Source: Candidatus Freyarchaeum deiterrae (GTDB lineage: Archaea; Asgardarchaeota; Jordiarchaeia; Jordiarchaeales; Jordiarchaeaceae). From it: a stretch of DNA of 64,000 bases. Both the position numbers and the translations under genes were made by a program. Where the stretch lies: contig CP147778.1 in the NCBI GenBank assembly GCA_037305845.1, positions 2,944,001-3,008,000 on the forward strand, written 5' to 3'. The notes under the pieces were generated by a model that was given only the letters and a program-made list of their open reading frames with translations, did no database searches and was not told the DNA's origin. This document shows positions 4,635-60,624 of this stretch, one piece after another; within the stretch, counting starts at the first letter, position 1, and the number at the start of each line of letters is the position of its first letter.

Positions 4635-4728
4635 ATAGATTAGTCTTGAAATTTTTTTAAGGCTAACCCATTTAAAAGCCTAACCATCGAGGCATTTTGG
4701 ATTTGCTTTTTAGAAATTATTTGCTAAT

Positions 4729-20518: not shown

Positions 20519-21295
20519 TTAGGCTTCGAATATTCTCCCTCTGCAATCGGGTTTATCGAATTCGTCCAGCACGTAGTCGAAGCGTTTTTTTGTTATGATT
20601 TCTGTGCAAGCATTGGCCAGTATCAGATTTACGCATTGCAAACCTCCGATCAGGCGTGATATTCCCTCATTCAATAAAGCCCGGCAGGTGTCCTTGTATG
20701 GACAATCAGAGTATAATATGCTTACCTGATTTTTTCCTTCCACTCCGAAATAATGAATCCGCTGAACCTTTTCCGCTTTGCTAACGGACAACCCTCTAGA
20801 TGCGAATGCAGCACCAGCTTTAGCAGCAAACGCTTTGGCTGCTTCCAAAACATTTTCGGTAGTTCCGACCAAATCTTTTAGCAGGCCACCTTTCTCGAGC
20901 ATGCTTTTAGTAGCGGTGTAGGCGGCTCTTCTGGATCCCGACGACCCGGCGTGGCCCTGGAGCTTGCTCTCCGTTTTGGCTATTCCGTAGATTAGGGCGC
21001 AGTTTCCTCTTGGGTATCGGTTCTCATTTGCAATAAGATATTTTATTACTGCTTCCAGCCCTCGAATGTCTTCGGGCGGCTTCTCTTTAAGCATCCTTGA
21101 CTCGAATTCCAGTGCATACTCGGAAACCATCCTATTGTAAATGGGACCGTAAAGCTTCACGTTTTCCTCAATGGAAGCTTTTGATATAAGTATATTAATT
21201 TGGTCTTCGAGCTCACCATCTATTATACATTCATTTTCAGAATTAGGCGCGTTTTCAGAATTAGATAAATTTTCAGATTTAGACATGGGAATCAA
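20519..21295 (-). CDS. Hypothetical protein with V4R/MetOD1-like Cys-rich C-terminus (paralog of 9717..10430)
   Basis: YSDCPYKDTC...GGLQC...FDYVLDEFDKPDC. Confidence 0.7.
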   Translation of the reverse strand: MIPMSKSENLSNSENAPNSENECIIDGELEDQINILISKASIEENVKLYGPIYNRMVSEYALEFESRMLKEKPPEDIRGLEAVIKYLIANENRYPRGNCALIYGIAKTESKLQGHAGSSGSRRAAYTATKSMLEKGGLLKDLVGTTENVLEAAKAFAAKAGAAFASRGLSVSKAEKVQRIHYFGVEGKNQVSILYSDCPYKDTCRALLNEGISRLIGGLQCVNLILANACTEIITKKRFDYVLDEFDKPDCRGRIFEA

Positions 21296-23192: not shown

Positions 23193-24896
23193 CTAAGCAG
23201 GCTTCATTTTCTGTATCTCTTGTTCTCTTAGCACTCTTCTCAGTGTCTTACCAACCATACTCTTAGGCAGCGCGTCCAAGAATTCTACGTATCTCGGATA
23301 TTTGTATGCCGCCATTCGTTCCTTGCACCAGTCAAAAATCTGATCCTCACTAACCTTACCCTTGAACTCGGGTTTCAAAACGATAAATACCTTAATCTGC
23401 TCACCCGATTCGGGGTCAGGTACACCTATCACTGTAGCGTCCATTACCGCTTCGTTTTCGAATAAAACCTCTTCAAGCTCCCTCGGATAAACACTGTGAC
23501 CCTTATACTTGATTATGTCCTTGGTACGGTCCATGATGTAGAAGTGTCCCTTCTCATCCATTCGCGCAAGGTCGCCGGTCTTCAACCACTTCTTACCTTC
23601 AACTTCAAAGAACACCTTCTTGGTTTCCTCGGGGCGTTTCCAGTAACCTTTCATAACCTGAGGACCGCTGACCACCAGCTCACCCAGCTCACCGATGGGC
23701 AAAAACGCGTTAGTATCGGGATCCACGATACCCGCCAGAGTATTCGGAACCGGAGGACCGATAGACCCAGGCACACCAATAAAAATTGGGGCGGGACGAG
23801 TGTGGGTAACCGGACTTGCTTCGGTTAAACCGTAGCCCTCACTAAGAGGATTACCCGATACCTGCTGCCACTGCTTAAAAAGTTCGACGGGAGCTGGAGC
23901 AGCACCCATACTGAGATACTTCAAGCTAGAGAAATCAATACTATGAGACTTGGGATGATTCAGTAAATAGATTAGGATAGCGGGAACAGCGAGAAGCGTA
24001 TTCGGCTTAAAGTTCTGGATTGCGTCAAGAACCTGAACGGGATCAAACTGGGTAAAACACGTACTGATACTATTCAACAAAGTAGCAGTAGCAATCTCGC
24101 AGGTCTGCCCGTATATGTGATACCATGGTAGCACTGAAATTCCTCTTGTTCTTTCATAGCCGTACTTTTTGTTTATGGTTTCTGTAATGGGCTTTATCTG
24201 TAAGGCGTTCGCTAAAATGTTGTAATGAGTAAGCATTGCGCCCTTAGGCAGGCCGGTTGTTCCTCCTGTGTACTGGAGCACCGCTACGTCTTCTGTGGGT
24301 TTTATTCTTATCTTCGGCGGCATTGGTGGAGTTTTTTCCATTAGTTCTTCGTATTTCACTATTTTGTCCAGGTCTTCTTTATCTATGTTAAGTTTCTCCC
24401 CGCCAATGCTGGTAACTATAATGTTTTTGAGCTGAGTTTCACCCTTAATCTGCTTAACGTTGTTGTAGAAAAGATCAATTGTCACTATGGTTTTTGCTCC
24501 GCTGTCCTTCAACTGGTAAGCTACCTCACGGGGTACAAATAGAGGGCTGATGGCGGTAACAGTGGCTCCAGACATTAAAATGCCGTAGTACGCCACCAGA
24601 AACTGGATGCAGTTCGGGAGGTAAATCGCAACTACATCATCCCTTCTCACTCCTAGATTGTAGAGAGCTGCCGCTAATTTCATAGCCCCGTCGCGAACTT
24701 GTTTGCGAGTGTACCCTTTACCATAAAAGAACATGAAAGCCTCGTCACCCCACTTTGCCACAGATTCATTGAGTGTATCGATCAAAGTCTTGTCTTTGGG
24801 AATTTTAACCTCTTTGGGATAATCCTTAGGATAGTAATTCAACCATATTTTCTTCTTGACATAATCAGGCAACTGAATATATTTTACGTTAAACAT
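23193..24896 (-). CDS. Long-chain fatty acid--CoA ligase (FadD-like), paralog 1
   Basis: QYTGGTTGLPKG, EGYGLTEASP, TGDLARMD, DRTKDII, LPKSMVGK; start set at MFNVK by alignment with the paralogs. Confidence 0.93.
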   Translation of the reverse strand: MFNVKYIQLPDYVKKKIWLNYYPKDYPKEVKIPKDKTLIDTLNESVAKWGDEAFMFFYGKGYTRKQVRDGAMKLAAALYNLGVRRDDVVAIYLPNCIQFLVAYYGILMSGATVTAISPLFVPREVAYQLKDSGAKTIVTIDLFYNNVKQIKGETQLKNIIVTSIGGEKLNIDKEDLDKIVKYEELMEKTPPMPPKIRIKPTEDVAVLQYTGGTTGLPKGAMLTHYNILANALQIKPITETINKKYGYERTRGISVLPWYHIYGQTCEIATATLLNSISTCFTQFDPVQVLDAIQNFKPNTLLAVPAILIYLLNHPKSHSIDFSSLKYLSMGAAPAPVELFKQWQQVSGNPLSEGYGLTEASPVTHTRPAPIFIGVPGSIGPPVPNTLAGIVDPDTNAFLPIGELGELVVSGPQVMKGYWKRPEETKKVFFEVEGKKWLKTGDLARMDEKGHFYIMDRTKDIIKYKGHSVYPRELEEVLFENEAVMDATVIGVPDPESGEQIKVFIVLKPEFKGKVSEDQIFDWCKERMAAYKYPRYVEFLDALPKSMVGKTLRRVLREQEIQKMKPA

Positions 24897-24929
24897 CTGA
24901 AAAGTCCACCCTACTTCCATTTTATCTTA

Positions 24930-24970
24930 ATATAATTTATCGGTTTACTAATTAATAAATACTATTACCC
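24930..24970 (-). promoter_or_regulatory. Conserved promoter/operator element shared by all three acyl-CoA ligase genes
   Basis: TAATAGTATTTATTAATTAGTAAACCGATAAATTA, near-identical to 50132-50166 and 53962-53996. Confidence 0.65.
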
Positions 24971-27136: not shown

Positions 27137-27573
27137 CACATTTTTCCTCCATCAATTTTTGACACTCAGTTCTTTTATACCAGATTTCTTTATATAATTT
27201 ATCGTTAAATTCTTCCCATTTTTCAATGGGTCGTCTTTTTACAAGAAACATACCGTGCGTTTATGGCTATTTCTTAATTTATCAAATTCATAAATATTGT
27301 GTTGAGTCTCTTTTCTTCAACTAAAAATTCCTTATAAATTCGTTTTTGAATACACTAATGTAATACACATCATTGTTTTTTAAGTGTCCTAAAACTGGGA
27401 ATTTTGGATTTTTTTCTACAAATTGATTGTCCAAAAATCTCTTAATCTCAATGTTGCAATTTTTGAAAATTAAAAATGTATTCAACAGTTTTTTATAAAT
27501 ATAAAATAATATTCTTTAGCGTCTTTAGCTAATTACAAAATATTTAACATCATTAAAATAACACAACCAGTGC

Positions 27574-27725
27574 ATTCTATTAATGAAAGTCACCGAAAAA
27601 AAGCAGTCAATGTCTCCATGAAAGAAGAGATTTTATCAGTATTCACCTCAGCTAATCTGAGAGGCAGAATAAATGCTATGTCCGACTTCTGCGAACCTGA
27701 AAAATTCGTTGTCGACCAGGGTTGA
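27574..27725 (+). pseudogene. Frameshifted relic of the C-terminal half of the ~117-aa repeat domain found at 48626-53840
   Basis: Reads ILLMKVTEK, then after a 1-nt shift in an A-run AVNVSMKEEILSVFTSANLRGRINAMSDFCEPEK, matching FLMKVTEK...INLRGRINALSDFYNLEK. Confidence 0.75.
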
Positions 27726-39197: not shown

Positions 39198-39653
39198 CCC
39201 CGATAATCAAAACAAATATAGTCTTTGTTTTAAACTTGGTACAATTTAAAAATATTGCAAAAAGATAAATAAAAAACAGCTTTCGTTATTCTATTCCCTC
39301 ATCTCTCCTCACTTAAGAGAGTTGGGTTTCCTTATGGAATTGTTTGTGAATGCTTTGATGAAGGTTAGAGCCGCAAAAATAGACCACTTGTGGGAAAATT
39401 CCCACTTTTTAAACTTTTTCAAAAGTTGGAAAAATATAACGGAAACGTATTTAAATACAAATTAATCTATACTAAATATAGCTACAATATAATTGTAACA
39501 TATTGCGAAAAACGCAACAGCTGCAAGTGAGAAAACTCGAGAAACAAAACTGTAAATCAATTCTACCAAAAAATCGTTGTGATAAACAAATTTCAAGAAA
39601 TTCGAGAGTTTTCAATGAAACTGAAAATAAAAAATTTAGTGTTGGGTGATGTT

Positions 39654-40034
39654 ATGCCTAAGAAATGGAGAGAAGAACTTGAAGGATTATTGAAAGCGAT
39701 GGCTGATGCAGACCCCGATGTAGTAGCATCTGCTGTGGTCAGAACCGACGGTTTGGTTATGGCTTCTGCACTACCAAAGGATGCCGATGAAGGATTAATT
39801 GCCGCAATGAGTGCGGCACTGCTCAACATTGGAAATCGAGCGGTGAGCGAGCTTGATCGAGGAAATCTCGACAAGGTTATAGTAAGTGGAACAAAGGGAG
39901 ACACTATTCTCCGTGGTGTTGGTACTGAAGCAGTCCTATCTGCCATTACGAAATCTGGTGCCAACATGGGTCTGGTCCTGGTTGAGATGCAGAGAACCGC
40001 TACCAAAGTTGCAGATGTACTTCGTTCGATGTAA
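39654..40034 (+). CDS. Roadblock/LC7 (MglB-like) domain protein
   Basis: SAVVRTDGLVMASAL...IAAMSAALL.IG.RAV.EL.RG.L..V.V.G..G...ANMGLVL; ATG 39654 follows a GGTGA RBS. Confidence 0.93.
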   Translation: MPKKWREELEGLLKAMADADPDVVASAVVRTDGLVMASALPKDADEGLIAAMSAALLNIGNRAVSELDRGNLDKVIVSGTKGDTILRGVGTEAVLSAITKSGANMGLVLVEMQRTATKVADVLRSM

Positions 40035-40467: not shown

Positions 40468-41655
40468 TTAAACAATGGTTTTTGTGCTGCTTTTTTCATG
40501 GAGGATGTTTTGTAATTCTATTACGTTTTGGTCATATTTGGGCAAATATTTATCAATAATTTCAATTTCTTTTAGGATTGTCTCGTAATACTGTTCTAGA
40601 ACTGGACTATTAAGGTAGTCTGCCGCTTCTCTCATTGCTTTAACGGTTTCCTCTACCCTTTTATGAGCACTATATGCCAGAAGAATTTCGTTTCTGGCTT
40701 CTACCAGTCCGAACTCAAGATCCTGAAGCGAAAAGCTTGCTGGAATTAACTCTTCTAAAGGTGTTTCAGACCTTATGAATGATTGAAGTTTTTTACCAGC
40801 GTCTTCTACGCTGCCCCAAAGCATGGTTAAAATTTGAAGAAGAGATCCTGAAACACACTCGAACACCTTCGCCCTACACTTAACAAGTATAATTAAATCT
40901 CGTTTCGACAGTTTAATCGTTTCCGAAAACTGCCTAAGGTTATCTAGTGAAAGGTTTAATTTACCGACTAGAACTTGATTTATATGACTTACCAGATTCC
41001 TTAAATTGGCTGCTAATTTAGCAAACTCATTAATTACTCCAGAAATTTGATTTACACAAATAGAAATATCTCTTTCATCTTGCACGATTGAGAAGCACAG
41101 ATCTATTTTGTTTTGAATTTTATTCCAATAGTTTTTCTGTTTTTCAACCTCTTCAATAAATGTATTGAGCGCATCCGATTTCAAAATAGTAGACACTTCT
41201 CTGAGGCGGTCCAACTTTTCAATCGTATTAGCCGTAATTCTTTCAAACTGCGGATAGATTAATTCCTCTATGGCCCTCATTTGAAATTTCAGAAAGTCCA
41301 AGTCGATTGTATCGATCTTAATAATGTTCTCTAGATTATTTTTTTGACTAATAATTCCAGAATAATCTTTGACACCAAGAGACAAAACCAGGTTATAAAA
41401 AAATTCCAAGCCCTTAATAATCCCATCAACATAATCTTCAAAGAACAATGCCAATCTTGACACAGCATCGGCTGAACTCTGGAAAGATTCAGTTAAATGT
41501 CCAAATTCATATTTCTTAAGCGATTCCCCTACTCTTGAGGCGAAGTCTCTGTTCACAGAATAAATCGAGAAAACTATTTCCGATGCTATCCTGTAAATCG
41601 ACTCTAAAAGACCTTTAACCTCTTCATCCGACTCTAACAGGATAACATCCCCCAC
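40468..41655 (-). CDS. Unknown all-helical protein, tandem paralog A
   Basis: Collinear with the 41843 and 43222 proteins (FSIYSV..DF.SRVG, DLDFLKFQ, LIILVKCRAK, LWGS, DLEFGLV.ARN, AADYLNSPVL). Confidence 0.85.
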   Translation of the reverse strand: MGDVILLESDEEVKGLLESIYRIASEIVFSIYSVNRDFASRVGESLKKYEFGHLTESFQSSADAVSRLALFFEDYVDGIIKGLEFFYNLVLSLGVKDYSGIISQKNNLENIIKIDTIDLDFLKFQMRAIEELIYPQFERITANTIEKLDRLREVSTILKSDALNTFIEEVEKQKNYWNKIQNKIDLCFSIVQDERDISICVNQISGVINEFAKLAANLRNLVSHINQVLVGKLNLSLDNLRQFSETIKLSKRDLIILVKCRAKVFECVSGSLLQILTMLWGSVEDAGKKLQSFIRSETPLEELIPASFSLQDLEFGLVEARNEILLAYSAHKRVEETVKAMREAADYLNSPVLEQYYETILKEIEIIDKYLPKYDQNVIELQNILHEKSSTKTIV

Positions 41656-41842
41656 TTTAATTATTCTATGTTATCTATATGATAATTAAACATTATTCTT
41701 GTATTTATAACTTGTTGCGAAAAACTACCAATTTTCTAAAGAATTTGCGAAAACCTAGAAAAGTTGAAAAAAAAATATTATAAATTAGCTAAATCTATCT
41801 CTCAAATTGGCTCGTCTCCTAAATTATTCTACTCGAAAGTTG

Positions 41843-43021
41843 TCATTCACTCTTCTCGATTGGTTCTACGCTTTTTCCATAGAGGCTATTTTGTAATTCT
41901 ATTATTTTTTGGTTATATTTAGGAAAATAATTATCAATAATTTCAATTTCTTTTACGATTATCTCGTAATACTCAGCTAGAACTGGACTATTAAGGTAGT
42001 CTGCCGCTTCTCTCATTGCTTTAACGGTTCCTTTTACCCTTTTATGAGCCCTATCCACTAGGAGAATTTGGTTTCGAGCCTGTACCAATCCAAACTCAAG
42101 ATCCTCAAGTGAGAGGTTTGGTGGAATTAAATTTTCTAATGGTGTTTCAGACCTTACGAGTGATTGGAATTTTTTACGAGCATTTTCTTCGCTGCCCCAA
42201 AGCATGGTTAAAATTTGAATGAAAGACCTTCCAAGATATTCAGCTCCCTTCGCTCTGCACTTCACAAGAATAATCAAGTCTTGGCTTAACTGTTTAATTT
42301 TTCCCGAAATCTGCTTGAAGTTATTTACAGAAAGTTCTAGTTTACCGCCCAGAAGCTGATTTAGATGACTTGCAAAACTTCTTAAATCGTCTGCAAAGAA
42401 AATAAGCTCATTAATTATCTCAGAAATTTGATTTATACAAATGGAAATATCTGTTGCTTTTTCAAAAATCGAGAAGCACAATTTTATTCTCTTTTGAATT
42501 TTATCCATTTTTTCCTTTTGTTTTTCAAACCCCTCTATAAATATATGGAGTCTATCCGATTCCAAAAAAGCAGACATCTCTCTAAGCAGCTCAAATTTTT
42601 GAATGATATCCGCTATACTTCTTTCGAACGGTGGGTAGATTAATTCCTCCGTGTTTCTCACTTGAAATTTGAGAAAGTCTAAGTCAATCTTATCAGGCTG
42701 AATAATTTGCTCCACCCTATTTCTTCGACTAAGAACTTCAGAATATTCTTTGATGCCGAGAGCAAAAACCAGATTAGAAAAAAATTCCAAGCCCTTAACA
42801 AAGGCCTCAATATAATTATCAAAAAATGATATCCATTTTGCCACAGCATCAGCTGAATTCTGGAAAGCCTCAATTAAATACCCAAATTCGTATTTTCCAA
42901 GCGATGCACCTACCCTTGAAGCAAAATCTTTATCCACAGAATAGATCGATAACATTAATTCTGATTCTATCCTAAAAATCGACTTTAAAAGATTTTCAAC
43001 TTCGCTTTCCGAATTTCCCAT
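41843..43021 (-). CDS. Unknown all-helical protein, tandem paralog B
   Basis: Same motifs as paralog A. Confidence 0.85.
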   Translation of the reverse strand: MGNSESEVENLLKSIFRIESELMLSIYSVDKDFASRVGASLGKYEFGYLIEAFQNSADAVAKWISFFDNYIEAFVKGLEFFSNLVFALGIKEYSEVLSRRNRVEQIIQPDKIDLDFLKFQVRNTEELIYPPFERSIADIIQKFELLREMSAFLESDRLHIFIEGFEKQKEKMDKIQKRIKLCFSIFEKATDISICINQISEIINELIFFADDLRSFASHLNQLLGGKLELSVNNFKQISGKIKQLSQDLIILVKCRAKGAEYLGRSFIQILTMLWGSEENARKKFQSLVRSETPLENLIPPNLSLEDLEFGLVQARNQILLVDRAHKRVKGTVKAMREAADYLNSPVLAEYYEIIVKEIEIIDNYFPKYNQKIIELQNSLYGKSVEPIEKSE

Positions 43022-43221
43022 AAAAGCTCCCTCGCGTGAATTATTTTCATGAAGCTTTCAGAAAATTATTTGAAATTCTTCGCAATTGTTTTAACAGTAA
43101 TTAATATTTATTCGAACTAACTATAAAACATTTCCAAAAGAATTAATCAAAACAAATCTCCAAAAAAATAAACACGCCAAGTATGTATCCAATATCTAAA
43201 ACAAATTTTAAACTATAGTCT

Positions 43222-44379
43222 TTATACTGCTTTTTCATGGAGAAGGCTTTGTAATTCTATTACGTTCTGGTTATACTTGGGCCAACCTTTATTGAAAATT
43301 TCAATTTCTTTAGTAATCATCTCGTAATACTGTCCTAGAACTGGACTATTAAGGTAGTTTGCCGCGTCCTTAATTGCTTTCGCATTTTCTTCTACTCTTT
43401 TTTGAGCTCTATCTGCTAGAAGCATTTTGTTTCGAGCCTGGACCAATCCAAACTCAAGATCCTCAAGTGAAAAGCTTGGTGGAATTAAATCTTCTAATGA
43501 TATTTCAGACCTTATGAGTGATTGAAGTTTTTTCTGAGCATTTTCTTCACTGCCCCAAAGTATGGTTAAAGGTAGAATATTAGACTCTATAACATACCCG
43601 GCTGCCTTCGCTCTACATTTAACAAGAATAATTAAATTTCGGCTTAACTGCCTAATTGTTTCCGAGAACTGTCTAACGCTATCTAGTGAAAGTTCTAATT
43701 TATTACTCCTAATTTGATTTATGCGACTTGCCAGATTCCTCAAATTGGCTGCAAACATAACAAGCTCATTAATTACCTCAGAAATTTGATTTACACAAGT
43801 AGAAATATCTGTTTCTTTTTCCACAGTCGAGAAGCATAACTTTATTCTATCCTGAATTTTATTCCAGTTACTTTCTTGTTTTTCAATATTCTCCATAAAT
43901 GTATTAATTGTATCCGATTCTAAAATAGCATAAACCTCTCTTAGGGATTCCAAGTTTTTAATCATCTTTACTGTAATTTTTTCTAACTGTGGGTAAATTA
44001 ATTCCTCCGTAGTTCTCATCTGGAATTTGAGAAAGTTCAAGTCGATCATATCCGGCTTAATTAGTTCTTCCACCTTATTTTTTTGACTAATAACTTCAGA
44101 ATATTCTTTGATGCCAAGAGACAAAGCCAGATTAGAAACAAATTCCAAGCCCCTAACAATCCCCTCAACATAATCTTCTAAGAATAATGCTAATCTTGAC
44201 ATAGCATCGGCTGAATTCTCGAAAGCTTGCATCATATGCCCAAATTTATATTTTCTAAGCGATTTACCTACCCTTGAGGAGAAATCTTTATCCACAGAAT
44301 AAATTGAAAATACTGTTTCTAATGCATTCCTGTAAATCGACTTTAAAAGACTATTAACCTTCTCTTCCAGCTTTCCCAA
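43222..44379 (-). CDS. Unknown all-helical protein, tandem paralog C
   Basis: Same motifs as paralog A. Confidence 0.85.
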   Translation of the reverse strand: MGKLEEKVNSLLKSIYRNALETVFSIYSVDKDFSSRVGKSLRKYKFGHMMQAFENSADAMSRLALFLEDYVEGIVRGLEFVSNLALSLGIKEYSEVISQKNKVEELIKPDMIDLNFLKFQMRTTEELIYPQLEKITVKMIKNLESLREVYAILESDTINTFMENIEKQESNWNKIQDRIKLCFSTVEKETDISTCVNQISEVINELVMFAANLRNLASRINQIRSNKLELSLDSVRQFSETIRQLSRNLIILVKCRAKAAGYVIESNILPLTILWGSEENAQKKLQSLIRSEISLEDLIPPSFSLEDLEFGLVQARNKMLLADRAQKRVEENAKAIKDAANYLNSPVLGQYYEMITKEIEIFNKGWPKYNQNVIELQSLLHEKAV

Positions 44380-47924: not shown

Positions 47925-48131
47925 TTACTCAGTATATTCTTCTCCTGATTGATCAGGTGAGCTGGTGTAGAATTCCGCTAGAAGTTTCATCTCTTCTTGA
48001 GCTATGAGTACTGCACACTCCTTACAGTACTTTTTTCCTTGGATAGTAACATAATTCCCTTCTTTTAGAATTTTGTTACAATTAATTACAGTACACTTCT
48101 CCGCTTCTTTATCCTTCAAAATTTTCACCAA
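47925..48131 (-). CDS. Small zinc-finger protein
   Basis: CTVINC...GKKYCKEC. Confidence 0.65.
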   Translation of the reverse strand: MVKILKDKEAEKCTVINCNKILKEGNYVTIQGKKYCKECAVLIAQEEMKLLAEFYTSSPDQSGEEYTE

Positions 48132-48625
48132 CTTACAATACCTTTTCTCATTTTAACGTGTTTCTAAAGAACTTTAAACCCGGAGGTTTGAAGCCGCTTC
48201 GTTTCTAATTTTATCAGCTCAGTTAGATTTTTACATGTTTTTTCTCTGATGAGAATATTTTTACAATTACCTACTTCTTCAACTTTTAAAGAGGGGATAA
48301 AACCAACTTTTTCAAAATAAGCGTCGTTAAGAGAAGGCTCCCCATCAGACTTTTGAAAGTCTGGAACTCGCCTCAAAGCTTTTTGAAGAAAAATTAGCGT
48401 TAATATTTGAGCTGGTTATCATCCAGGAGAACTTCAAAGACTGAAATCAACCTGTGTAAAAATTTTAACATATTCTGATTACTTTTAGGCGATGTTTTTA
48501 TACTCGGCTTAAAATTTTACACTATTCGCCGATTACCGAAAATCTCCAATTTTTTCGCTATTTATAGAATTTATGGGCAGAAAAAAATATAACAACTTAA
48601 TACGAAATTTATATTAACGACACAA

Positions 48626-49708
48626 ATGAGGTTTACTCTTTTGAGTGAAGAAAGTGAGGTAGGTAAGCTTATCGAGCTTGTTGAGCGGAATATAGGTACC
48701 TGGAAGCCCCTAGCGGTAGCCATAGTTGACGTAAACTACAAGGTTTGGGGCGAAAAGGGGGACGTTCCAAAAAATATTCTCAACTACTACAAGAAGTTCA
48801 CCCTATCAAGAATGCAAATGGGAGACAGTATTAACAACAGCGGCTCCTTTCTCATGAAGGTCACTGAGAAAACGGGAGTTCTAGTGGTTATGGAAGACTT
48901 TCAAATATCTAGGCTCGCTGCAATAAACCTCAGGGGCCGAATCAACGCCCTATCAGAGTTCTACAATCTAGAAAAACTCATCAAGGAACCTTTGAGCGAG
49001 GAGATCAATGTAGGTAAGCTTATTGAGCTTGTTGAGCGGAATATAGGTACCTGGAAGCCCCTAGCGGTAGCCATAGTTGACGTAAACTACAAGGTTTGGG
49101 GTGAAAAGGGTAGCGTTCCCAAAAATATTCTCAACTACTACAAGAAGTTCCCCCTATCAGATATACAAGTGGGGGACGGCATCAATAACAACGGCTCCTT
49201 CCTCATGAAAGTCACTGAGAAAACCGGAGTAATAGTAGTTATGGGAGACCCTCGCATATCCAGGCTCGCCGCAACAGATTTCAGGGGCCGGCTTAACGCC
49301 CTATCAGAGTTCTACAATCTAGAAAAACTCATCAAAGAGGATGAGAGAAATCCTTTGAGTGAAGCGAGTAACGTAGGTAAGCTTATTGAGCTTGTTGAGC
49401 TGAACGTTGGCAGCTGGAAGCCCCTAGCGGTAGCCATAGTTGACGTAAACTACAAGGTTTGGGGTGAGAAGGGTAGCGTTCCCAAAAATATTCTCAACTA
49501 CTACAAGAAGTTCCCCCTATCAGGCATGCAAGTGGGGGACAACATGAATAACAGCGGCTCCTTCCTCATGAAGGTCACTGAGAAAACCGGAGTAATAGTA
49601 GTTATGCAAGACCCCCATATATCAAGACTCGCCGCAACAGATCTCAAGGGTCGGCTCAACGCCCTATCAGAGTTTCTCACTAAGATAGCTCATCAAAGAG
49701 AAGTATAA
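48626..49708 (+). CDS. Protein of three tandem ~117-aa unknown domains (predicted Roadblock/profilin-like alpha/beta)
   Basis: Three copies of KLIELVE.N.G.WKPLAVAIVDVNYKVWGEKG.VPKNILNYYKK...GSFLMKVTEKTGV.VVM...ISRLAA...RGR.NALSEF at periods of 351 and 363 bp. Confidence 0.85.
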   Translation: MRFTLLSEESEVGKLIELVERNIGTWKPLAVAIVDVNYKVWGEKGDVPKNILNYYKKFTLSRMQMGDSINNSGSFLMKVTEKTGVLVVMEDFQISRLAAINLRGRINALSEFYNLEKLIKEPLSEEINVGKLIELVERNIGTWKPLAVAIVDVNYKVWGEKGSVPKNILNYYKKFPLSDIQVGDGINNNGSFLMKVTEKTGVIVVMGDPRISRLAATDFRGRLNALSEFYNLEKLIKEDERNPLSEASNVGKLIELVELNVGSWKPLAVAIVDVNYKVWGEKGSVPKNILNYYKKFPLSGMQVGDNMNNSGSFLMKVTEKTGVIVVMQDPHISRLAATDLKGRLNALSEFLTKIAHQREV

Positions 49709-49835
49709 AAAACATACTTCACAAATGCTAAGAAAAGAGCAGAAGTACCTAATATACTAGAATAACTGAGTGATTTAGACGCTTTTTTAAAGGAAAACTT
49801 ACCTCTTATAAAGGCTTAAGTGTGTAGGCCTTCGT

Positions 49836-50008
49836 ATGAAGTTTCCTAGTGTGGATAGGATGATTGAACTGGTTGAACACAGAGAAAACAGGAATCATAT
49901 TTGTTATGGAAGATTCTCACAACTCCAGGCTCGCAGCAATAAACCTCAGGGAGAGACTCAACGCCCTGTCTGAGTTATACACCTCGAAAAGTCAATAAAA
50001 AAAGATAA
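49836..50008 (+). pseudogene. Internally deleted copy of the single-domain gene 53490..53840
   Basis: 5' end (MKFPSVDRMIELVE) is joined out of frame to the 3' end (TEKTGIIFVMEDSHNSRLAAINLRERLNALSE); ~180 bp missing. Confidence 0.85.
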
Positions 50009-50131
50009 AAAGTCTAGAATTGGGAAACCATGAAAAAGCCAAGGTAGGAACATAATAGTTTCATGAAAACAAAACTCCAGCAGGGCGGAGGAAAACCTAC
50101 CAAAAATAAAAAATATTTTTGCAACAGCAGG

Positions 50132-50166
50132 TAATAGTATTTATAAATTAGTAAACCAATAAATTA
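50132..50166 (+). promoter_or_regulatory. Conserved acyl-CoA ligase promoter/operator element, copy 2
   Basis: TAATAGTATTTATAAATTAGTAAACCAATAAATTA. Confidence 0.65.
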
Positions 50167-50201
50167 TATTGACCACAATGCAATTGAGGTGAATTATACT
50201 T

Positions 50202-51944
50202 ATGTTTAGATTAAAAAAGTCCGTGAAGTTGCCAGACTATGTTAAGAAGAAAATCTGGTTGGATTACTATCCTAAGGATTTTCCCAAAGAGATTGAAATT
50301 CCTGAAAACATGTCATTACCCGATATATTCGACGAGTCAGTAGAAAAGTGGGGTGATGATGTTTTCCGGATTTTTTATGGTAAAGAATACACCCGCAGAC
50401 AGATCCAAGACTGGGCTAAGAGGTTAGCAACAGCCCTCTACAACCTGGGAGTGAGAAAGGGTGATGTGGTGGCAATCTACCTCCCCAACTCTCCCCAGTT
50501 CATTACCTCGTACTCAGCCATTTTACGGATAGGGGCTGTTGTTACCCCTATCAGTCCCCTGTTTGTGCCCCGTGAGGTTGCCTACCAGTTAAATGACAGC
50601 AGGGCTGAAACCATAATAACAACGGATCTCTTCTACGACAAAGTGAAGCAGATCAAGGACGAAACCCTGCTCAAACACGTTATTATATGCAACCTCCAGG
50701 GAGAGAAGCTTCAGGTCCCGAAGGAAGACTTGGACGAAGTATTGAACTACGACGAGTTGTTAGAGAAAACTCCACCCAACCCGCCAAAGGTGAAGATAAA
50801 ACCCAAAGAAGACGTAGCTGTGCTCCAGTACACCGGAGGCACAACCGGTCTACCTAAAGGCGCAATGCTTACCCACTACAACATTATAGCGGATGGTCAC
50901 CAGTTGGGGACGGTTTCAGAAGCTCTTAACAAAAAGTTAGGCATTGAGAGATCAATAGCGATATGTGTCTTGCCCTGGTATCACATTTATGGTCAGATCA
51001 CCGATGTTATCATTCCTCATTTGCGAAATACGTTCGCTGTTTGTTTTGCCCAGTTTGACCCCGTTCTGGTTCTTGAGGCGATTCAGAAGTATAAGCCTAA
51101 CCTCATGGCCGTGGTTCCTACTCTTTTGGCCTTTCTATTGATGCATCCCAAATCTCGTGATACTGATTTTTCCAGTTTGAAGTATGTTGTTGCGGCTGCG
51201 TCTCCCGCTTCCATTGAACTTACTAAGCAATGGAATAGTGTGTCGGGTAATCCTCTTAGTGAGGGTTATGGTTTGACGGAAGCTTCTCCTTCTACTCATA
51301 ATCGTTGTGCCCTGCTTTTTGGTGATGTGCCGGGTTCTATCGGTCCTCCTCTTCCGAACACCCTAGCGGGTATCGTGGATCCGGAAACCAATGATTTCTT
51401 GCCTATCGGTGAGGTGGGTGAGCTAGTGATTAGTGGTCCGCAGGTTATGAAGAGTTACTGGAATCGCCCCGAGGATACCAAGAAGGTGTTCTTTAAGGCT
51501 GGTGGTAAGAGGTGGTTGAAGACCGGTGACATTGGTAAGATGGATGAGAAAGGCTATTTCTACATTTTGGATCGTACCAAGGACATAATAAAGTATAAGG
51601 GACACAGTGTTTATCCCAGGGAGATTGAAGAAGTTTTATATCAGCATGAGGCGGTTTTGGACGCTGCGGTGATTGGTGTGCCTGACCCTGAGACGGGTGA
51701 GCAGATTAAGGCGTTTGTGGTTCTGAAGCCGGAGTTTAAGGGTAAGGTCCAAGAGGATGACATTCTGGACTGGTGCAAGGAGCGTATGGGTGCCGACAAG
51801 TATCCTAGGTACGTAGAGTTTAGGGACTTTGTTCCAAGGAGTTTGATTGGTAAGGCTCTAAGAAGAGTGCTGAGAGAAGAGGAAGCAAAGAAAGCACAGG
51901 CAGCAGAGAAAGCGCCGGAAATAAAGAAAGCAGAAATTATCTAG
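50202..51944 (+). CDS. Long-chain fatty acid--CoA ligase, paralog 2
   Basis: QYTGGTTGLPKG, EGYGLTEASP, TGDIG, PRSLIGK. Confidence 0.93.
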   Translation: MFRLKKSVKLPDYVKKKIWLDYYPKDFPKEIEIPENMSLPDIFDESVEKWGDDVFRIFYGKEYTRRQIQDWAKRLATALYNLGVRKGDVVAIYLPNSPQFITSYSAILRIGAVVTPISPLFVPREVAYQLNDSRAETIITTDLFYDKVKQIKDETLLKHVIICNLQGEKLQVPKEDLDEVLNYDELLEKTPPNPPKVKIKPKEDVAVLQYTGGTTGLPKGAMLTHYNIIADGHQLGTVSEALNKKLGIERSIAICVLPWYHIYGQITDVIIPHLRNTFAVCFAQFDPVLVLEAIQKYKPNLMAVVPTLLAFLLMHPKSRDTDFSSLKYVVAAASPASIELTKQWNSVSGNPLSEGYGLTEASPSTHNRCALLFGDVPGSIGPPLPNTLAGIVDPETNDFLPIGEVGELVISGPQVMKSYWNRPEDTKKVFFKAGGKRWLKTGDIGKMDEKGYFYILDRTKDIIKYKGHSVYPREIEEVLYQHEAVLDAAVIGVPDPETGEQIKAFVVLKPEFKGKVQEDDILDWCKERMGADKYPRYVEFRDFVPRSLIGKALRRVLREEEAKKAQAAEKAPEIKKAEII

Positions 51945-52271
51945 AATTTTCCTTCTCCCTTTTTACTCTTTATTTTTAATTTGTTCCTTTTTTTGGTCAG
52001 GCAGTTGATTTGGTTTGTATCTTTTTCCTAGCTTCTAAGAATATAAACCCAAACTGACAACACTTGTAATTACCATTTAAGATTATTGCAATTTTTCTAA
52101 AATCTTTCGCTTGAAATATTCTTTAGAGCTATATTATCAGCTCAGTTCGATTTTTACATGCCTACTCTCTGATGAGAATATTTTTTACTGAAGATCTTCA
52201 ATTTTTTTGCAACTATTTGTAAAATTTATGGACAGAAAAAAATATAATACAAAAATATACAATTTATATTA

Positions 52272-53363
52272 GTGACATTTGCGAGGAATGCAATTTTGAT
52301 TGAAGAGGTTAATGTTGACAAGCTTATCGAGCTTGTTGAGCGGAATATAGGTACTTGGAAGCCCCTAGCGGTAGCCATAGTTGACGTAAACTACAAGGTT
52401 TGGGGTGAAAAGGGGAGCGTTCCCAAAAATATTCTCGACTACTACAAGAAGTTCCCCCTATCAGGTATGCGCGTGGGGGACAGCATTAACAACAATGGCT
52501 CTTTTCTCATGAAGGTCACAGAGAAAACGGGTGTCATAGTGATTTTGGGCGACCATCAAATATCTAGGCTAGCCACAATAAATCTCAGGGGCCGGCTCAA
52601 CGCCCTGTCAGACTTCTACAATCTAGAAAAACTCGTCAAGGAACCTTTGAGTGAAGAGGTTAATGTTGACAAGCTTATCGAGCTTGTTGAGCTGAACGTA
52701 GGTAAATGGAAGCCCCTAGCGGTAGCCATAGTTGACGTAAACTACAAGCTTTGGGGCGAAAAGGGGAGCGTTCCCAAAAATATTCTCGACTACTACAAGA
52801 AGTTCTCCCTATCAGACATGCAAGTTGGAGACAACGTTAACAACAACGGCTCCTTCCTAATGAAGGTCACGAAGAAAACGGGAGTCATAGTAGTCATGGG
52901 CGACCATCAAATATCTAGGCTCGCCGCAATAAACCTAAGGGAGCGCCTCAACGCCTTATCAGACTTCTACAATCTAGAAAACCTCATCAAAGAGGAGGAA
53001 AAAAATCCTCTGAGCGAAGCAAGTAATGTAGAAAATCTAATTGAGCTCGTTGAGCGGAACATTGGTAACTGGAAGCCTTCATCGCTAGCCATAGTTGACC
53101 TAAACTACAAGGTTTGGGGCGAAAAGGGGAGCGTTCCCAAAAATATTCTCGACTACTATAAGAAGTTCCCCCTATCGGACATGCAAATGGGAGACAACAT
53201 GAACAATAGCGGTTCCTTCCTCATGAAGGTCAATGAGGAAACCGGAATCATAGCTGTTATGGGAGACCTTCAAATATCTAGGCGCGCCGCAATAACTCTC
53301 AGGGGCCGGCTTAACAACCTATCAGAGTTCTGCGCTCAGTTATCTCAAAAAAGAGAAGGATAA
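52272..53363 (+). CDS. Protein of three tandem ~117-aa unknown domains, paralog of 48626..49708
   Basis: Same domain three times, with the same 351/363 bp periods. Confidence 0.85.
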   Translation: MTFARNAILIEEVNVDKLIELVERNIGTWKPLAVAIVDVNYKVWGEKGSVPKNILDYYKKFPLSGMRVGDSINNNGSFLMKVTEKTGVIVILGDHQISRLATINLRGRLNALSDFYNLEKLVKEPLSEEVNVDKLIELVELNVGKWKPLAVAIVDVNYKLWGEKGSVPKNILDYYKKFSLSDMQVGDNVNNNGSFLMKVTKKTGVIVVMGDHQISRLAAINLRERLNALSDFYNLENLIKEEEKNPLSEASNVENLIELVERNIGNWKPSSLAIVDLNYKVWGEKGSVPKNILDYYKKFPLSDMQMGDNMNNSGSFLMKVNEETGIIAVMGDLQISRRAAITLRGRLNNLSEFCAQLSQKREG

Positions 53364-53489
53364 AAACCACATTTCGCGAAATGCTAAAAAGAGAGCAGAA
53401 GCATTAAATATACGAGAATAACTTAATAATTCTATACTTTTTAAAGAAAATTTTTGCTCTTTTAAAGGCTTAGGTGTGGAGGCCTTTGC

Positions 53490-53840
53490 ATGACGAATCC
53501 TAGTTTGGATAAGATGATTGAACTGGTTGAGCTGAATATTGGTCGTTTGAAGCCTGAAGCGGTGGGCATAGTTGACGTAAAATACGGGGTATGGGGTGAA
53601 AAGGGTAGTTTTCCTATGGGGACTCTCGATCATTACAAGAAGTTCCCCCTATCAGACATGCACCGAGGAGACAGCATTCACAACAACAATACGTTCCTCA
53701 TGAAGGTCACAGAGAAAACGGGAATCATAGTTGTTATGAGCGACCTCCACACAGCCAGGCTCGCAGCAATAAACCTCAGGGAGCATCTCAACGCGCTGTC
53801 AGACTTCTACAAACTCGAAAAATCAATAAAAAAAAGATAA
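53490..53840 (+). CDS. Single-copy ~116-aa version of the same unknown domain
   Basis: KMIELVELNIG.LKPEAVGIVDVKYGVWGEKG...FLMKVTEKTGIIVVM...RLAAINLR..LNALSDFY; GGAGG RBS. Confidence 0.85.
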   Translation: MTNPSLDKMIELVELNIGRLKPEAVGIVDVKYGVWGEKGSFPMGTLDHYKKFPLSDMHRGDSIHNNNTFLMKVTEKTGIIVVMSDLHTARLAAINLREHLNALSDFYKLEKSIKKR

Positions 53841-53961
53841 AAAGTCTAGAATTGGGAAACCCGGAAAAACCCGAAGTAGGAAACCAAGAGTCTCATTAAA
53901 ACCCGAAGCAGGACAAGGGAAAACCCCACCCAAAAGAAAAAAATAATTTTACATCAGCGAA

Positions 53962-53996
53962 TAATAGTATTTATTAATTTGTAAACCGATAAATTA
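53962..53996 (+). promoter_or_regulatory. Conserved acyl-CoA ligase promoter/operator element, copy 3
   Basis: TAATAGTATTTATTAATTTGTAAACCGATAAATTA. Confidence 0.65.
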
Positions 53997-54031
53997 AACT
54001 GTGCATATTTCAATTGAGGTGAATTATACTC

Positions 54032-55753
54032 ATGTTTAGATTAAAAAGGTCTGTGAAATTGCCAGACTATGTTAAGAAAAAAATCTGGTTGAAGTACTAT
54101 CCGAAGGATCTTCCCGCAAAAGTTGAAATTCCCAATAAGTCCTTACCTCAAGTATTCGAAGAAGCGGCGAAAACGCATGCTGAGGAAGTCAGCGTGATTT
54201 TTTATGGTAAAGAAGTCCGCCGCAAAGAAATCTATGAAGGGTCTTGCCGGCTTGCAACAGCGCTCCACAATATGGGAATAGGAAAGGGTGATGTGGTCGC
54301 GCTTTATCTGCCCAACTGCATAAATTTTATAATTTCATACCAGGGCATTCTAAGATCAGGGGCTATGGCTACCACTATCAATCCGCTGTTCGTGCCCCGT
54401 GAGATTGCCTACCAGTTACAGGATAGCGGAGCAGAAACCATCATAACAATGGACATGTTCTACAACAATGTGAAACAGATTAAAGATGAAACCCAGCTCA
54501 AAAACATTATTCTTTGCAACCTCAAGGGAGAGAAGCTCCAAGTCGATAAAGAAGACCTAGACAAAATATTGAACTACGACGAACTAATGGACAAAACTCC
54601 ACCAAACCCGCCGAATTTAGAGATAAACCCCACACAAGATATAGCTGTACTCCAATACACGGGCGGCACAACCGGCCTGCCTAAGGGCGTGTTGCTCACA
54701 CATCACAACCTCATAGCAAACGCATATCAAGTTGCAGCCGTGGGAAGGGCACATTTAAAAGCTATGAACGAAGACAAAGTTAGATCCATCAGTGTAATCC
54801 CTTGGTATCATATATACGGTCAGAGTAATGAGCTTGTTTTGTCTGCTTGCGAGTTGGTTCCTAAGGAGACGACCCATGCTTTTACCCAGTTTGATCCAGC
54901 TCAGATTCTTGACGCAATCCAGAAGTATAGGCCGAACGTTATGGCAGCAGTTCCTACCATTCTCGCCATGTTATTATATCATCCTAAGGCTAATGATACT
55001 GATTTTACCAGTTTGAAGGCTCTTACTATGGGTTCAAGTTCCTGTCCTATTGAGCTTTTGAAGAAGTGGGAGGAAGTGTCGGGCAATCCCCTTAGTGAAG
55101 GTTATGGTTTGACCGAGGCTAGCCCAGCTGTTCTTACTCGTCAAGCGTGGATTTTCGGTAATGTACCGGGTTCTGTTGGTGTCCCGATTCCGAGCACCCT
55201 AGCGGGTATCGTGGATCCCGATACTAATGATTTCTTACCGCTCGGTGAGCTGGGCGAACTGGTGGTTAGCGGTCCTCAAGTTATGAAGGGTTACTGGAAA
55301 CGCCCCGAAGACACTAAGAATGTATTCTTTAAGGCTGGCAGAAGGAGATGGTTGAAGACCGGCGACCTTGCACGAATGGATGAGAAGGGATACTTCTACA
55401 TTGTGGATCGTACCAAAGACATAATCAAATATAAGGGTCACAGTGTCTATCCGAGGGAAATTGAAGAAGTTTTATATGAGAACGAGGCTGTCATGGACGC
55501 TGCTGTTATCGGTGTGCCTGACTCCATGGTGGGTGAGCAGATCAAGGCTTTTATCGTTTTGAAGCCCGGTTTTAAGGGTAAGGTTAAAGAGTACGAAATT
55601 CTAGACTGGTGCAAAGAGCGTATGGGAGGGGACAAGTATCCAAGGAGCATAGAGTTAAGGGACTCTCTCCCCAAGAGTCTGATTGGTAAGACTCTAAGAA
55701 AAGTGCTGAGAGAACAGGAAGCAAAGAAAGCACGGGACACAGAGGTCGTTTAG
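54032..55753 (+). CDS. Long-chain fatty acid--CoA ligase, paralog 3
   Basis: QYTGGTTGLPKG, EGYGLTEASP, TGDLARMD, LPKSLIGK. Confidence 0.93.
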   Translation: MFRLKRSVKLPDYVKKKIWLKYYPKDLPAKVEIPNKSLPQVFEEAAKTHAEEVSVIFYGKEVRRKEIYEGSCRLATALHNMGIGKGDVVALYLPNCINFIISYQGILRSGAMATTINPLFVPREIAYQLQDSGAETIITMDMFYNNVKQIKDETQLKNIILCNLKGEKLQVDKEDLDKILNYDELMDKTPPNPPNLEINPTQDIAVLQYTGGTTGLPKGVLLTHHNLIANAYQVAAVGRAHLKAMNEDKVRSISVIPWYHIYGQSNELVLSACELVPKETTHAFTQFDPAQILDAIQKYRPNVMAAVPTILAMLLYHPKANDTDFTSLKALTMGSSSCPIELLKKWEEVSGNPLSEGYGLTEASPAVLTRQAWIFGNVPGSVGVPIPSTLAGIVDPDTNDFLPLGELGELVVSGPQVMKGYWKRPEDTKNVFFKAGRRRWLKTGDLARMDEKGYFYIVDRTKDIIKYKGHSVYPREIEEVLYENEAVMDAAVIGVPDSMVGEQIKAFIVLKPGFKGKVKEYEILDWCKERMGGDKYPRSIELRDSLPKSLIGKTLRKVLREQEAKKARDTEVV

Positions 55754-56009
55754 AATTTTCCTTCTCTTTTTTTTGTCTTTTTTTATTTTATAGCTTTTTG
55801 GCGAGTTTTGCGAATTGGTTTGTATCGTTTTCTTATTGTATAATGACTATATACCTAAACTTACAACCCTTGGAATTGCAATTCAATATTATCGCAATTA
55901 TTATGAACTATTTCGCGTTAAATATTCATGAAATATACAGATAATGCAGTTTTTTTCTCCTATTTTGCGAAAATAATATATGTACTTATTTTAAGTATAT
56001 TATGTAGCA

Positions 56010-57536: not shown

Positions 57537-58676
57537 TTGCCTATAGATTTTGGTTTTACCCCAGAGCAGGAAAAGCTAAGAGCTTCTGTGAAAGAGTGGT
57601 GTCAAAAAGAGATTACTCCATTAGTGAATGAGATGGAAGAGAAAGAAGAATTCAATAAAGGTCTCGTCGCTAAATTTAAGAAAAAATTTCTGAACATGTG
57701 GATTCCCAAAAAGTATGGAGGAACAGACGCCGATACTGTTGATATATGCATTGTGGCTGAAGAAGTCGGCTACGCTTGTGGCTCATGTCTAACCCTCCTT
57801 GAGGTAGGAGGTTTAGGATGCTTACCAATTGTATTCGGTGGAACCGAGGAACAGAAAAAGAAATTCCTAGTGCCAATAGCGAACGGAGAACATTTTTACG
57901 GTTTCGGATTAACCGATGAGGGATCAGGCTCAGACGTCGCAAACATGAAGCTAACAGCCGAGAAGAAAAACGGTGAATACGTTCTAAACGGTATGAAACG
58001 CTTAATAAGTAACTGTGATATAGCCCACAGCATTACCGTCTTCGCGAAAACAGATCCCGAAAAAGGAGCTGGAGGCATTAGCGCCTTCGTGGTTGATCTC
58101 GGAACCCCGGGATTTGTTATTGGTAAAAGACTGTGGGGGTGGGGAATAAAAGTACACCACACAAACGAATTAGAGTTCCATGACTGTGCATTACCTGCGG
58201 AAAGACTGTTAGGTGAAGAGAATAAAGGCTTCGTCTACGCCATGAAAACACTTGACAGAACCAGACTGGTTTTAGCTGCGGGCAATGTAGGAATAGGCCG
58301 AGCCGCCTTCGACGTAGCAGTAAAGTTCTCACAGGAAAGAGAGGCTTTCGGAAAACCCATATCAGAAAATCAGGCAATAAGTTTCAGACTCGCCGAATTA
58401 GCAACAGAGATTGAAGCCGCACGCCTCCTAGCGTACAAGGCAGCCTGGCTGGATAACAAGAAGGTTCGCCATACTGTAGAGACATCGATGGCTAAGTACT
58501 ACGCCTGCGAGTTGGCAGCAAAATCAGCTGAGTCCGCTGTGAAAATACTGGGCGGCTACGGTTGGAGCAAAGATTACCCAGTTATGATTCATCTACACGA
58601 CGCGCTGGGATTCATTAACGCTCAGGGAACATCAGAAATACACAAATTGATAATATCAAGATCCCTATACGATTAA
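57537..58676 (+). CDS. Acyl-CoA dehydrogenase
   Basis: GLTDEGSGSD, LNGMKRLISN, REAFGKPISENQ, SMAK, ILGGYG, GTSEI. Confidence 0.95.
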   Translation: MPIDFGFTPEQEKLRASVKEWCQKEITPLVNEMEEKEEFNKGLVAKFKKKFLNMWIPKKYGGTDADTVDICIVAEEVGYACGSCLTLLEVGGLGCLPIVFGGTEEQKKKFLVPIANGEHFYGFGLTDEGSGSDVANMKLTAEKKNGEYVLNGMKRLISNCDIAHSITVFAKTDPEKGAGGISAFVVDLGTPGFVIGKRLWGWGIKVHHTNELEFHDCALPAERLLGEENKGFVYAMKTLDRTRLVLAAGNVGIGRAAFDVAVKFSQEREAFGKPISENQAISFRLAELATEIEAARLLAYKAAWLDNKKVRHTVETSMAKYYACELAAKSAESAVKILGGYGWSKDYPVMIHLHDALGFINAQGTSEIHKLIISRSLYD

Positions 58677-59175: not shown

Positions 59176-60195
59176 CTACTGTGTTTCCTGCTCTTTTTTT
59201 AATAAGAGTTCTCCTGCAGATTTAAAGAATTCGTCTACGTTTGTACCGAGTTTAGCGCTTGTTTCGAAGTAGGGTGCGTTTATCTCTTGAGCGTATTTCG
59301 AACACTCTGGCAATGGTATTTTTCTCTCTAAATCATTTTTGTTGCCAATCACAATTATTGATTGAAGGTTGCCAAAAGAGTTGTATACCTCCCAACGCCA
59401 CTTCTCCAAGTTTTTGAATGATTCGGGGTTGGTTAAGTCGAAAACTAGAACGACTAGGTCGGCGTCAATGTAGAGCTCCTTTCTCATTTCTTCAAAGTTA
59501 GCTGAACCAGCAAAATCCCAGAAATGCAGACGCACTTTGTTTTTTGCGATTTCTAGCTGTTTTGCAGTGAAGTCGCATCCAATAGTGGGGGAGTACTCTG
59601 TTGGGAATTTGTTTTCGGTGACTTTTTTAATTATACTTGTTTTCCCCACTTTTTTATCCCCCACAACAATAATCTTAAACATGAAAGTCTTTGATCTTCT
59701 AAGGACCTGCTTTAATGATGATGCGGCTGTTTTGGATGGTTCTTGGAGGGGAATTGAGGTTTTGGATATTACCTCTGTTGTCTCTGGAGTGATTAATTCG
59801 CGAATCCTACTCTGTAACAACATTCCATCGACTTTCACTCCAAATCCGGTAAACGGTTGTACATTTCCGTCCCATTGCTCGAGTAGGGGACCAAAATTTT
59901 TGATAAAAGCATCCAGTATATTGCCTAAGAAGCCTCTAACCAATTCTTCGTTGTCTTCCTTACCAACAACTGCCACCGCCATAATACTGTCACGCGGCTC
60001 ATAGAGCACTCTGTAATTTTTAAGAAGAATCTCCCGAAGACTCTCATCATCCGCACCCTGAATAAGTTTGCTGGAGAATCTAAGTATTGCGGTTAGAAAA
60101 CCTCCAATAAGGTTTTCATCGATTTCAATGGAACCATACTTTCTGCAAAGAATACAGATACCCCTACTATCGATAATGTAGATTCCCTGAATCAT
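59176..60195 (-). CDS. Longin-like domain fused to a Rab/Ras-like small GTPase (eukaryotic signature protein type)
   Basis: N-terminal MIQGIYIIDSRGICIL...LIGGFLTAI..F (longin/AP-sigma-like); G1 GDKKVGKTS, PTIG, WDFAG, NKND, ETSAK. Confidence 0.9.
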   Translation of the reverse strand: MIQGIYIIDSRGICILCRKYGSIEIDENLIGGFLTAILRFSSKLIQGADDESLREILLKNYRVLYEPRDSIMAVAVVGKEDNEELVRGFLGNILDAFIKNFGPLLEQWDGNVQPFTGFGVKVDGMLLQSRIRELITPETTEVISKTSIPLQEPSKTAASSLKQVLRRSKTFMFKIIVVGDKKVGKTSIIKKVTENKFPTEYSPTIGCDFTAKQLEIAKNKVRLHFWDFAGSANFEEMRKELYIDADLVVLVFDLTNPESFKNLEKWRWEVYNSFGNLQSIIVIGNKNDLERKIPLPECSKYAQEINAPYFETSAKLGTNVDEFFKSAGELLLKKEQETQ

Positions 60196-60624
60196 AAGGG
60201 TAAACCACACAATAATAATCATTCTCTGAATCAAAAGTAGTGAAGTTGCACTTAAATTCTTTATTATACCCTCTCCTAATGGTTCAATGTCAAGTTACTA
60301 TAAATAAACAACATTACCCTATTCAATTCAAGGCAAAAATTTGTAAAACGTTGATAGCTCAAGCTTGACGGTTGTTGATATTTTCAGAATAAAAAAGGGG
60401 GAAAGATAGACGAGAGTTGGGATATCATTCAGGAAATTCCAGAGAAGATGACACATAAAAATGAAGTTTTCTAAGCCAAGCCAAGTCCGGCCCGCGGTTC
60501 ATAGTAAGTGTGTTAAAATATCCTGTTCACTATTAAATTATTCACTCAAGAACTCCATTTACTTAACAAAGCTCATACGCTAAGCTTTTAAAATCCAACT
60601 TTGTTGTGAAGTGTGGTGATATTT

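Follow-up and report, generated by a model that had tools for sequence, protein, structure and literature searches.

Domains of the Roadblock/LC7 type are known from MglB, LAMTOR2/3, the C-terminal domain of Rag proteins, Asgard archaeal Roadblocks (RB; PMC10933270) and a Roadblock-Longin protein of Loki (8YQK). The window analyzed here, 64,000 nucleotides (nt) of contig CP147778.1 from Candidatus Freyarchaeum deiterrae, carries a duplicated cassette in which genes for a domain with the same element order precede acyl-CoA ligase genes. Like Roadblock/LC7 proteins, some members of this domain family are fused to a second Roadblock or lie beside MglA/Rab-like GTPases. Unlike them, the domain gives no profile match, has a central helix of about 5 residues, has a seven-transmembrane (7TM) protein as its main partner, forms tandem in-chain repeats and was found in one order only. 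Roadblock families restricted to one lineage are to be expected in Asgard archaea, where 130 Roadblock-superfamily clusters were reported (Liu et al., 10.1101/2020.10.19.343400), and the fold alone is therefore unsurprising. With a probability judged slightly above even, the domain is a Jordarchaeales-specific receptor adaptor, and the window copies have lost their receptor gene, remain subject to purifying selection and act in trans.

A second comparison is offered by the actinobacterial conservon, which consists of the CvnA kinase, CvnB roadblock, CvnC and CvnD GTPase (PMC4316618, PMC13343842). Multi-copy operons that pair a membrane sensor with a Roadblock protein are common to both, and one operon of the present family (L017/L095, described below) adds a GTPase. 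They differ in the sensor, which here is a 7TM protein without a kinase or else a surface protein anchored in the membrane, and in the 7TM modules, which have no GTPase gene. A CvnC-type gene was not seen in the domain operons (no profile search was made for it), and the full conservon set of histidine kinase, Roadblock, CvnC and GTPase was absent at the cassette and the 7TM loci.

In prokaryotic 7TM sensors the enzyme output is normally part of the protein itself, and eukaryotic G-protein-coupled receptors (GPCRs) signal to a separate GTPase system. The partner of the domain resembles HisKA_7TM, 7TMR-DISM and eukaryotic GPCRs in its seven-helix arrangement with an outside N-terminus and a basic inner side. 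It differs from prokaryotic 7TM sensors in having no fused kinase, cyclase or phosphatase output and in being coupled to a separate Roadblock-fold gene. None of these closest known systems (MglB/LAMTOR-type, conservon or prokaryotic 7TM sensor) has the domain's combination of features, and a published description of a Roadblock-fold plus stand-alone 7TM module was not found in the literature searched. Compared with FadD-type acyl-CoA ligases, the window ligases are ordinary, with nothing unusual.

The cassette lies in a Freyarchaeia/Jordarchaeales genome assembled as a single contig of 3,576,204 bp, and its homologues are labelled Freyarchaeota/Jordarchaeia. Each tandem unit, on the plus strand, consists of a three-domain gene, a one-domain gene and a FadD-like AMP-binding ligase gene:

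48208..48262, plus strand: 55-bp upstream element at the start of the duplicated unit, repeated at 52131-52185 (89% identity between units)
48641..49708, plus strand: gene A, three tandem Roadblock-fold domains, 355 amino acids (aa); the open reading frame (ORF) opens at 48626, TTG start at 48641
49836..50010, plus strand: pseudogene of the single-domain gene of unit 1, with a 176-nt frameshifting deletion and a 1-nt deletion
50138..50163, plus strand: 26-bp TATA-containing motif of ligase 1, putative promoter
50202..51944, plus strand: ligase 1, FadD-like acyl-CoA ligase, 580 aa (PF00501 and PF13193)
52296..53363, plus strand: gene B, three tandem Roadblock-fold domains, 355 aa; the ORF opens at 52272, TTG start at 52296
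53490..53840, plus strand: gene C, single Roadblock-fold domain, 116 aa (AlphaFold2 model, VIA structural search, tree)
53968..53993, plus strand: 26-bp TATA-containing motif of ligase 2, putative promoter
54032..55753, plus strand: ligase 2, FadD-like acyl-CoA ligase, 573 aa, 67% identical to ligase 1

Genes A and B likely start at these TTG codons, and the resulting lengths match P0089/P0090. Lesions in the unit 1 pseudogene were read against the intact L030 copy and gene C. Seven intact copies of the domain (~115 aa, 55-85% identical to one another) and one frameshifted copy were counted over both units; ORFs and alignments thus agree with an earlier note, made from the sequence, that had described two tandem triple/single/ligase units with seven intact copies and a deleted one. 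Its unit length of ~3.9 kb was roughly right, the measured spacing being 3.7-3.8 kb. DNA identity between the units is 83% over the domain genes and merely 74% over the ligase part, which rules out an assembly or read-collapse artefact and indicates a genuine, old duplication.

The AlphaFold model of the gene C domain had a predicted local distance difference test score (pLDDT) of 92.6 (59 homologues in the alignment). Its elements run in the order helix (6-17), two strands (24-29, 34-39), short helix (45-49), three strands (62-65, 68-72, 77-82) and long C-terminal helix (86-98), with the five-stranded sheet lying between the central helix and the paired N- and C-terminal helices. All of the top 50 Foldseek hits were Roadblock, MglB or Rag C-terminal domains. 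The first VIA match was the Lokiarchaeota roadblock 8yqk (Z 12.2, root-mean-square deviation (rmsd) 2.6 Å, 105 aligned residues), followed at lower ranks by a Mon1-Ccz1 chain (Z 9.7) and a GAF-fold enzyme (Z 8.8). Pfam, NCBIfam and PDB sequence searches with the domain gave no significant match, PF03259 included, and homology to the host genome's canonical Roadblocks or longins was undetectable by hhalign (probability 7.6% and 9.1%). The domain is accordingly modeled as a Roadblock by fold that is not a member of PF03259 and that forms an unnamed family.

That the domain could not be assigned to a named family had also been the earlier note's view; of the Roadblock/longin/profilin-like topology that it proposed, the Roadblock part was borne out by the model and both structural searches. 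Criteria for separating the three folds were taken from Tran et al. 2024 (PMC10933270). [quoted passage not shown] The Roadblock dimer contact is made by the C-terminal half of a long central helix (PMC10933270). In the gene C model this long dimer-forming helix is absent; a helix of about 5 residues with a short turn, at a local pLDDT of 94-95, takes its place. An Atlas model of the triple-domain gene B reached a predicted template modeling score of 0.36.

The most consistent partner gene of the domain encodes a stand-alone GPCR-shaped 7TM protein and is usually translationally coupled to it. Eighteen of the 25 near-full-length 7TM genes in the order have an intact domain copy directly upstream, five have a broken copy and two could not be judged; the domain gene and the downstream 7TM gene usually overlap by a few nt. 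Three loci (G000:C1:814947-818028, 3465594-3468455 and 420800-422785; L021, L022 and L024) hold two 7TM genes each, and all six have an intact or decayed domain copy directly upstream. The 7TM protein has seven helices, an N-out, basic-inside topology and no output domain; conservation is high in its basic inner loops (0.56-0.80) and low in the variable outer loops (0.21-0.43). In VIA its model matched GPCR-fold chains at Z 14-17 (rmsd 3-4 Å, ~200 residues), including a designed GPCR-like fold (Z 17.3) and ADGRL3 (Z 14.8, rmsd 3.8 Å, 194 aligned), a match that speaks for the fold only, as helical bundles score high by chance. GPCRs filled the Foldseek list, none at E 0.001, and there was no significant Pfam match to GPCRs. 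The modeled fold common to the partner and GPCRs does not show descent.

A complex was predicted for one cognate Roadblock-7TM pair, which belongs to the tree group holding the window repeats. It scored 0.43 (best control 0.00, contact agreement between runs at least 89%, partner pLDDT at least 74) against a mark that 58 of 80 solved pairs and 2 of 110 mismatched ones attained, with passes at 0.60 or below comprising 7 of the 80 solved complexes and both passing mismatches. This prediction hints that the domain may bind the 7TM protein.

A profile search found the family in 11 of 11 Jordarchaeales genomes and in none of 389 other Asgard genomes (400 in total), the latter having been queried with A2 or P0084 in a loose first screen that included many incomplete genomes and leaves absence unproven. 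The host genome holds 19 intact copies in 15 genes (12 of these copies outside the cassette), one divergent copy and several remnants; pseudogenes and remnants together number at least five. Among 87 distinct domain sequences, which include kin and hence are not independent, 28 stand directly before a 7TM gene, 12 before a ligase and 6 beside a small GTPase. Distant homologues of 354-374 aa (P0084 and P0086, at L057:74-1198 and L058:6001-7065) come from unclassified contigs and have the domain followed by what appears by eye to be a longin-like region, an architecture named as in 8YQK; neither of the two matches a solved structure.

In the tree, the repeat domains of the window fall within a starred group of 17 rows (96/88) that also holds 7TM-coupled and orphan copies, and gene C belongs to a distinct subfamily. 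All ligase-side domains fall into two starred groups, one of repeat genes and one of single genes, both from one locus. Three orphan copies at 2.646 Mb of the genome occupy the site at which a relative has a Roadblock+7TM module (L033), which indicates that orphans arise by receptor loss. Ratios of nonsynonymous to synonymous substitution rates (dN/dS) for the window copies were 0.18-0.45 in all twelve comparisons (0.18-0.35 for gene A), alongside 0.17-0.39 for 7TM-coupled controls, and reading frames stay open across dS 0.16-0.5. This selection suggests that the window copies are functional, and because it persists without a receptor gene they most likely act in trans. Between the repeat genes dS is 0.3-0.5, versus 0.73 between the ligases, and the repeats of L117 are 90-95% identical in DNA, which together indicate gene conversion.

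On the ligase side, the same-strand link to the domain was seen beyond the window in J. madagascariense and five further contigs. It occupies the same syntenic place wherever flanks are readable, in one unit wherever both flanks are present, and the surrounding region as a whole is equally syntenic. The earlier note had cautioned that the linkage was observed only once independently; all ligase-side copies trace to one locus. Domain counts at the orthologous locus are 1+1 (L110), 2+1 (L030, L118) and 3+1 (L117), so that a fixed four-domain scaffold is unsupported. The same note's idea of a triple plus a single as a two-pair, Ragulator/MglB-style scaffold is not supported, given these counts, the dead single gene that leaves unit 1 with three domains, and the missing dimer-forming helix of the model.

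Both ligases are ordinary AMP-binding enzymes with the AMP-binding and C-terminal Pfam domains, and their best NCBIfam models are long-chain, below curated cut-offs. Only 2 of the 15 ligase genes in the host genome have an adjacent domain (13 have none), and 4 of 5 congeneric genomes (87-97% complete) encode 66-67% identical ligases with no adjacent domain copy. The 26-bp motif has three matches in the window, each before a ligase, including a Roadblock-free paralogue, and none in shuffled sequence. Each window ligase thus has its own motif of putative promoter function; a scan for sigma-70 promoters and terminators, with models not suited to archaea, gave no excess over shuffles. One locus, domain-free paralogues and a shared ligase motif mean that a dedicated ligase regulator is not required. 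The ligase genes look more like inherited neighbors than like partners, and the link is probably incidental. A sister-family genome (L059:4808-9923) has the domain, fused to a partial canonical Roadblock, 2.8 kb from an opposite-strand AMP-binding gene, the only other ligase proximity seen.

GTPase genes accompany the domain at other loci. In two sister-family genera (L017:643-3882 and L095:3494-7174), a membrane-anchored surface protein is followed by a fusion gene, an MglA-like GTPase and an unknown 220-240-aa protein; the fusion joins the domain to a second, canonical-type Roadblock directly before the MglA-like gene. This operon resembles a conservon without the kinase. Fusion to a second Roadblock is found in P0071 and P0075. 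At L093 (G000:C1:2926079-2929848) and L090-L092, a longin gene is divergent from a Rab-like GTPase, which is followed by a divergent domain copy fused to a winged helix and then by an acyl-CoA dehydrogenase, an arrangement conserved in the genus.

The proposed mechanism would begin with a ligand binding the variable outer face of the 7TM receptor. The adaptor domain would dock on the conserved cytoplasmic loops, change state and pass the receptor state on, either to small GTPases or to regulators of another kind, in the manner of Roadblocks of the MglB/LAMTOR type. The relay step to a GTPase is conjectural because the 7TM-coupled loci have no GTPase gene. The window copies would descend from Roadblock+7TM modules whose receptor gene has since been lost, with one gene growing to one to three tandem copies through unequal exchange. 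They may serve as extra or multivalent adaptors, or as competitors, for six receptors encoded elsewhere in the genome, and the ligase would be a neighbor with its own promoter, duplicated together with the domain genes.

Several observations weigh against this adaptor reading. The largest class of the distinct domain sequences (38 of 87) has no recognized partner, and no 7TM-coupled locus carries a GTPase gene. The complex prediction is weak and its pair comes from another locus, not from the window copies. The domain-ligase link persists in at least six other contigs, and a modest excess of acyl-CoA genes in the host genome keeps a lipid role possible. In addition, the window copies carry W20L and N31K in gene C and H58Q and H64N in the repeats, at positions 78-100% conserved in 7TM-coupled copies, so that they may no longer bind a receptor and their targets may have shifted.

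Such clade-specific changes under continued selection would also suit local recruitment in one sub-lineage, with receptor-free copies binding or regulating the acyl-CoA ligase or sensing fatty acyl-CoA. This is an appreciable though clearly lesser prospect, favored by the retention of the same-strand link in relatives and its duplication as a unit here. An acyl-CoA gene lies within 3 kb of 5 of 11 other loci when remnants and the divergent copy are included (P 0.005) and of 3 of 8 with intact copies only (P 0.056), against a background of 11.6% from multi-copy genes of the host genome and at one of three distances tried; of 21 dispersed families, only one exceeds the domain family in this proximity. 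However, neither the 1-kb distance (P 0.15) nor the other genomes (4 of 24, P 0.30) showed an excess, and the nearby genes encode different enzymes, 3 of 5 on the opposite strand. Recruitment also fits poorly with a single orthologous locus in an equally syntenic region, with a motif common to the Roadblock-free paralogue, and with an intact ligase 1 beside a dead single-domain gene. The ligase-regulating role first proposed for the cassette is weakened by the single locus, the domain-free paralogues and the ligases' own motifs, and the acyl-CoA neighbors of other copies in this genome leave it some likelihood.

An MglB-like GTPase-activating protein or scaffold independent of the 7TM protein, with the repeats as Roadblock pseudo-dimers, is improbable. 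Its candidate GTPase is perhaps the longin-Rab fusion 5 kb away, which is syntenic in L001 and L117 but lies on the opposite strand and is missing from that position in L118. MglB acts on MglA as a dimer (PMC4316618); the Foldseek list agrees with such a role, and the fusion to a second Roadblock before the MglA-like gene would supply a one-chain MglB-like dimer. Yet the GTPase-linked copies fall in branches of the tree other than those of the window copies, the model has a short central dimer helix and the domain counts at the locus include odd numbers. More doubtful again is a GAF/PAS-like sensor in which the short central helix leaves a pocket for a metabolite. Several GAF domains matched at Z 7-8.8 in VIA, every one below the roadblock match, and two samples have a histidine-kinase fusion with the domain N-terminal (L114:10001-11074 and L116:655-2242). 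The phospho-His box of this fusion is degenerate (the His is lost in P0095), and in L116 it is followed by what is left of the end of a Roadblock, the beginning of a 7TM protein and a disrupted response regulator, so that the kinase was inserted into a Roadblock+7TM module. As the fusion is a secondary, partly decayed insertion, no functional meaning was drawn from it. It is very improbable that the copies at the cassette are functionless, the neutral leftovers of a family whose members are rapidly gained and lost; the remnants in the genome, the variable repeat number and the homogenized L117 repeats fit this view, whereas the consistently low dN/dS and the open frames do not.

Other genes of the window are as follows:

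23193..24961, minus strand: third close ligase paralogue with no adjacent Roadblock-fold gene; same 26-bp motif at 24936-24961
27534..27716, plus strand: decayed remnant of the domain (E 4.8e-7, in-frame stops)
39579-40034: canonical Roadblock (PF03259)
57537..58676, plus strand: acyl-CoA dehydrogenase, syntenic in relatives
59176..60234, minus strand: longin-like region fused to a Rab-like GTPase (Ras family), syntenic in L001 and L117

The canonical Roadblock and the longin-GTPase had both been named in the earlier note. Adjoining the former (40468-44379, minus strand) are three tandem paralogues of a 385-395-aa helical protein, which has one full copy in L117 and L118. A small gene with two CxxC-like motifs (47925-48131, minus strand) is divergent from the cassette and keeps its position in L117/L118. 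Three tandem transporter paralogues, of major-facilitator type by eye, occupy 1786-5976 (minus strand), and tandem duplication is common across the window. Genes at 9717-10430 and 20519-21295 are apparent members of a putatively V4R-like 40-gene family of the host genome; 6 of 20 loci of this family lie near acyl-CoA genes.

A broader proposal, offered tentatively, is that in Jordarchaeales stand-alone 7TM proteins of GPCR fold signal through a Roadblock-fold adaptor to small GTPases, free of kinase and cyclase, with the tandem copies of the window providing multivalency that may tie the system to fatty-acid activation. As the Roadblock+7TM system was found in one order only, analogy to GPCR signaling is likelier than ancestry. 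It is the receptor module, more than the ligase cassette, that gives the locus family its interest: a GPCR-fold protein that stands alone and is coupled to a fold of GTPase regulators would be a small, testable model of a eukaryote-style design.

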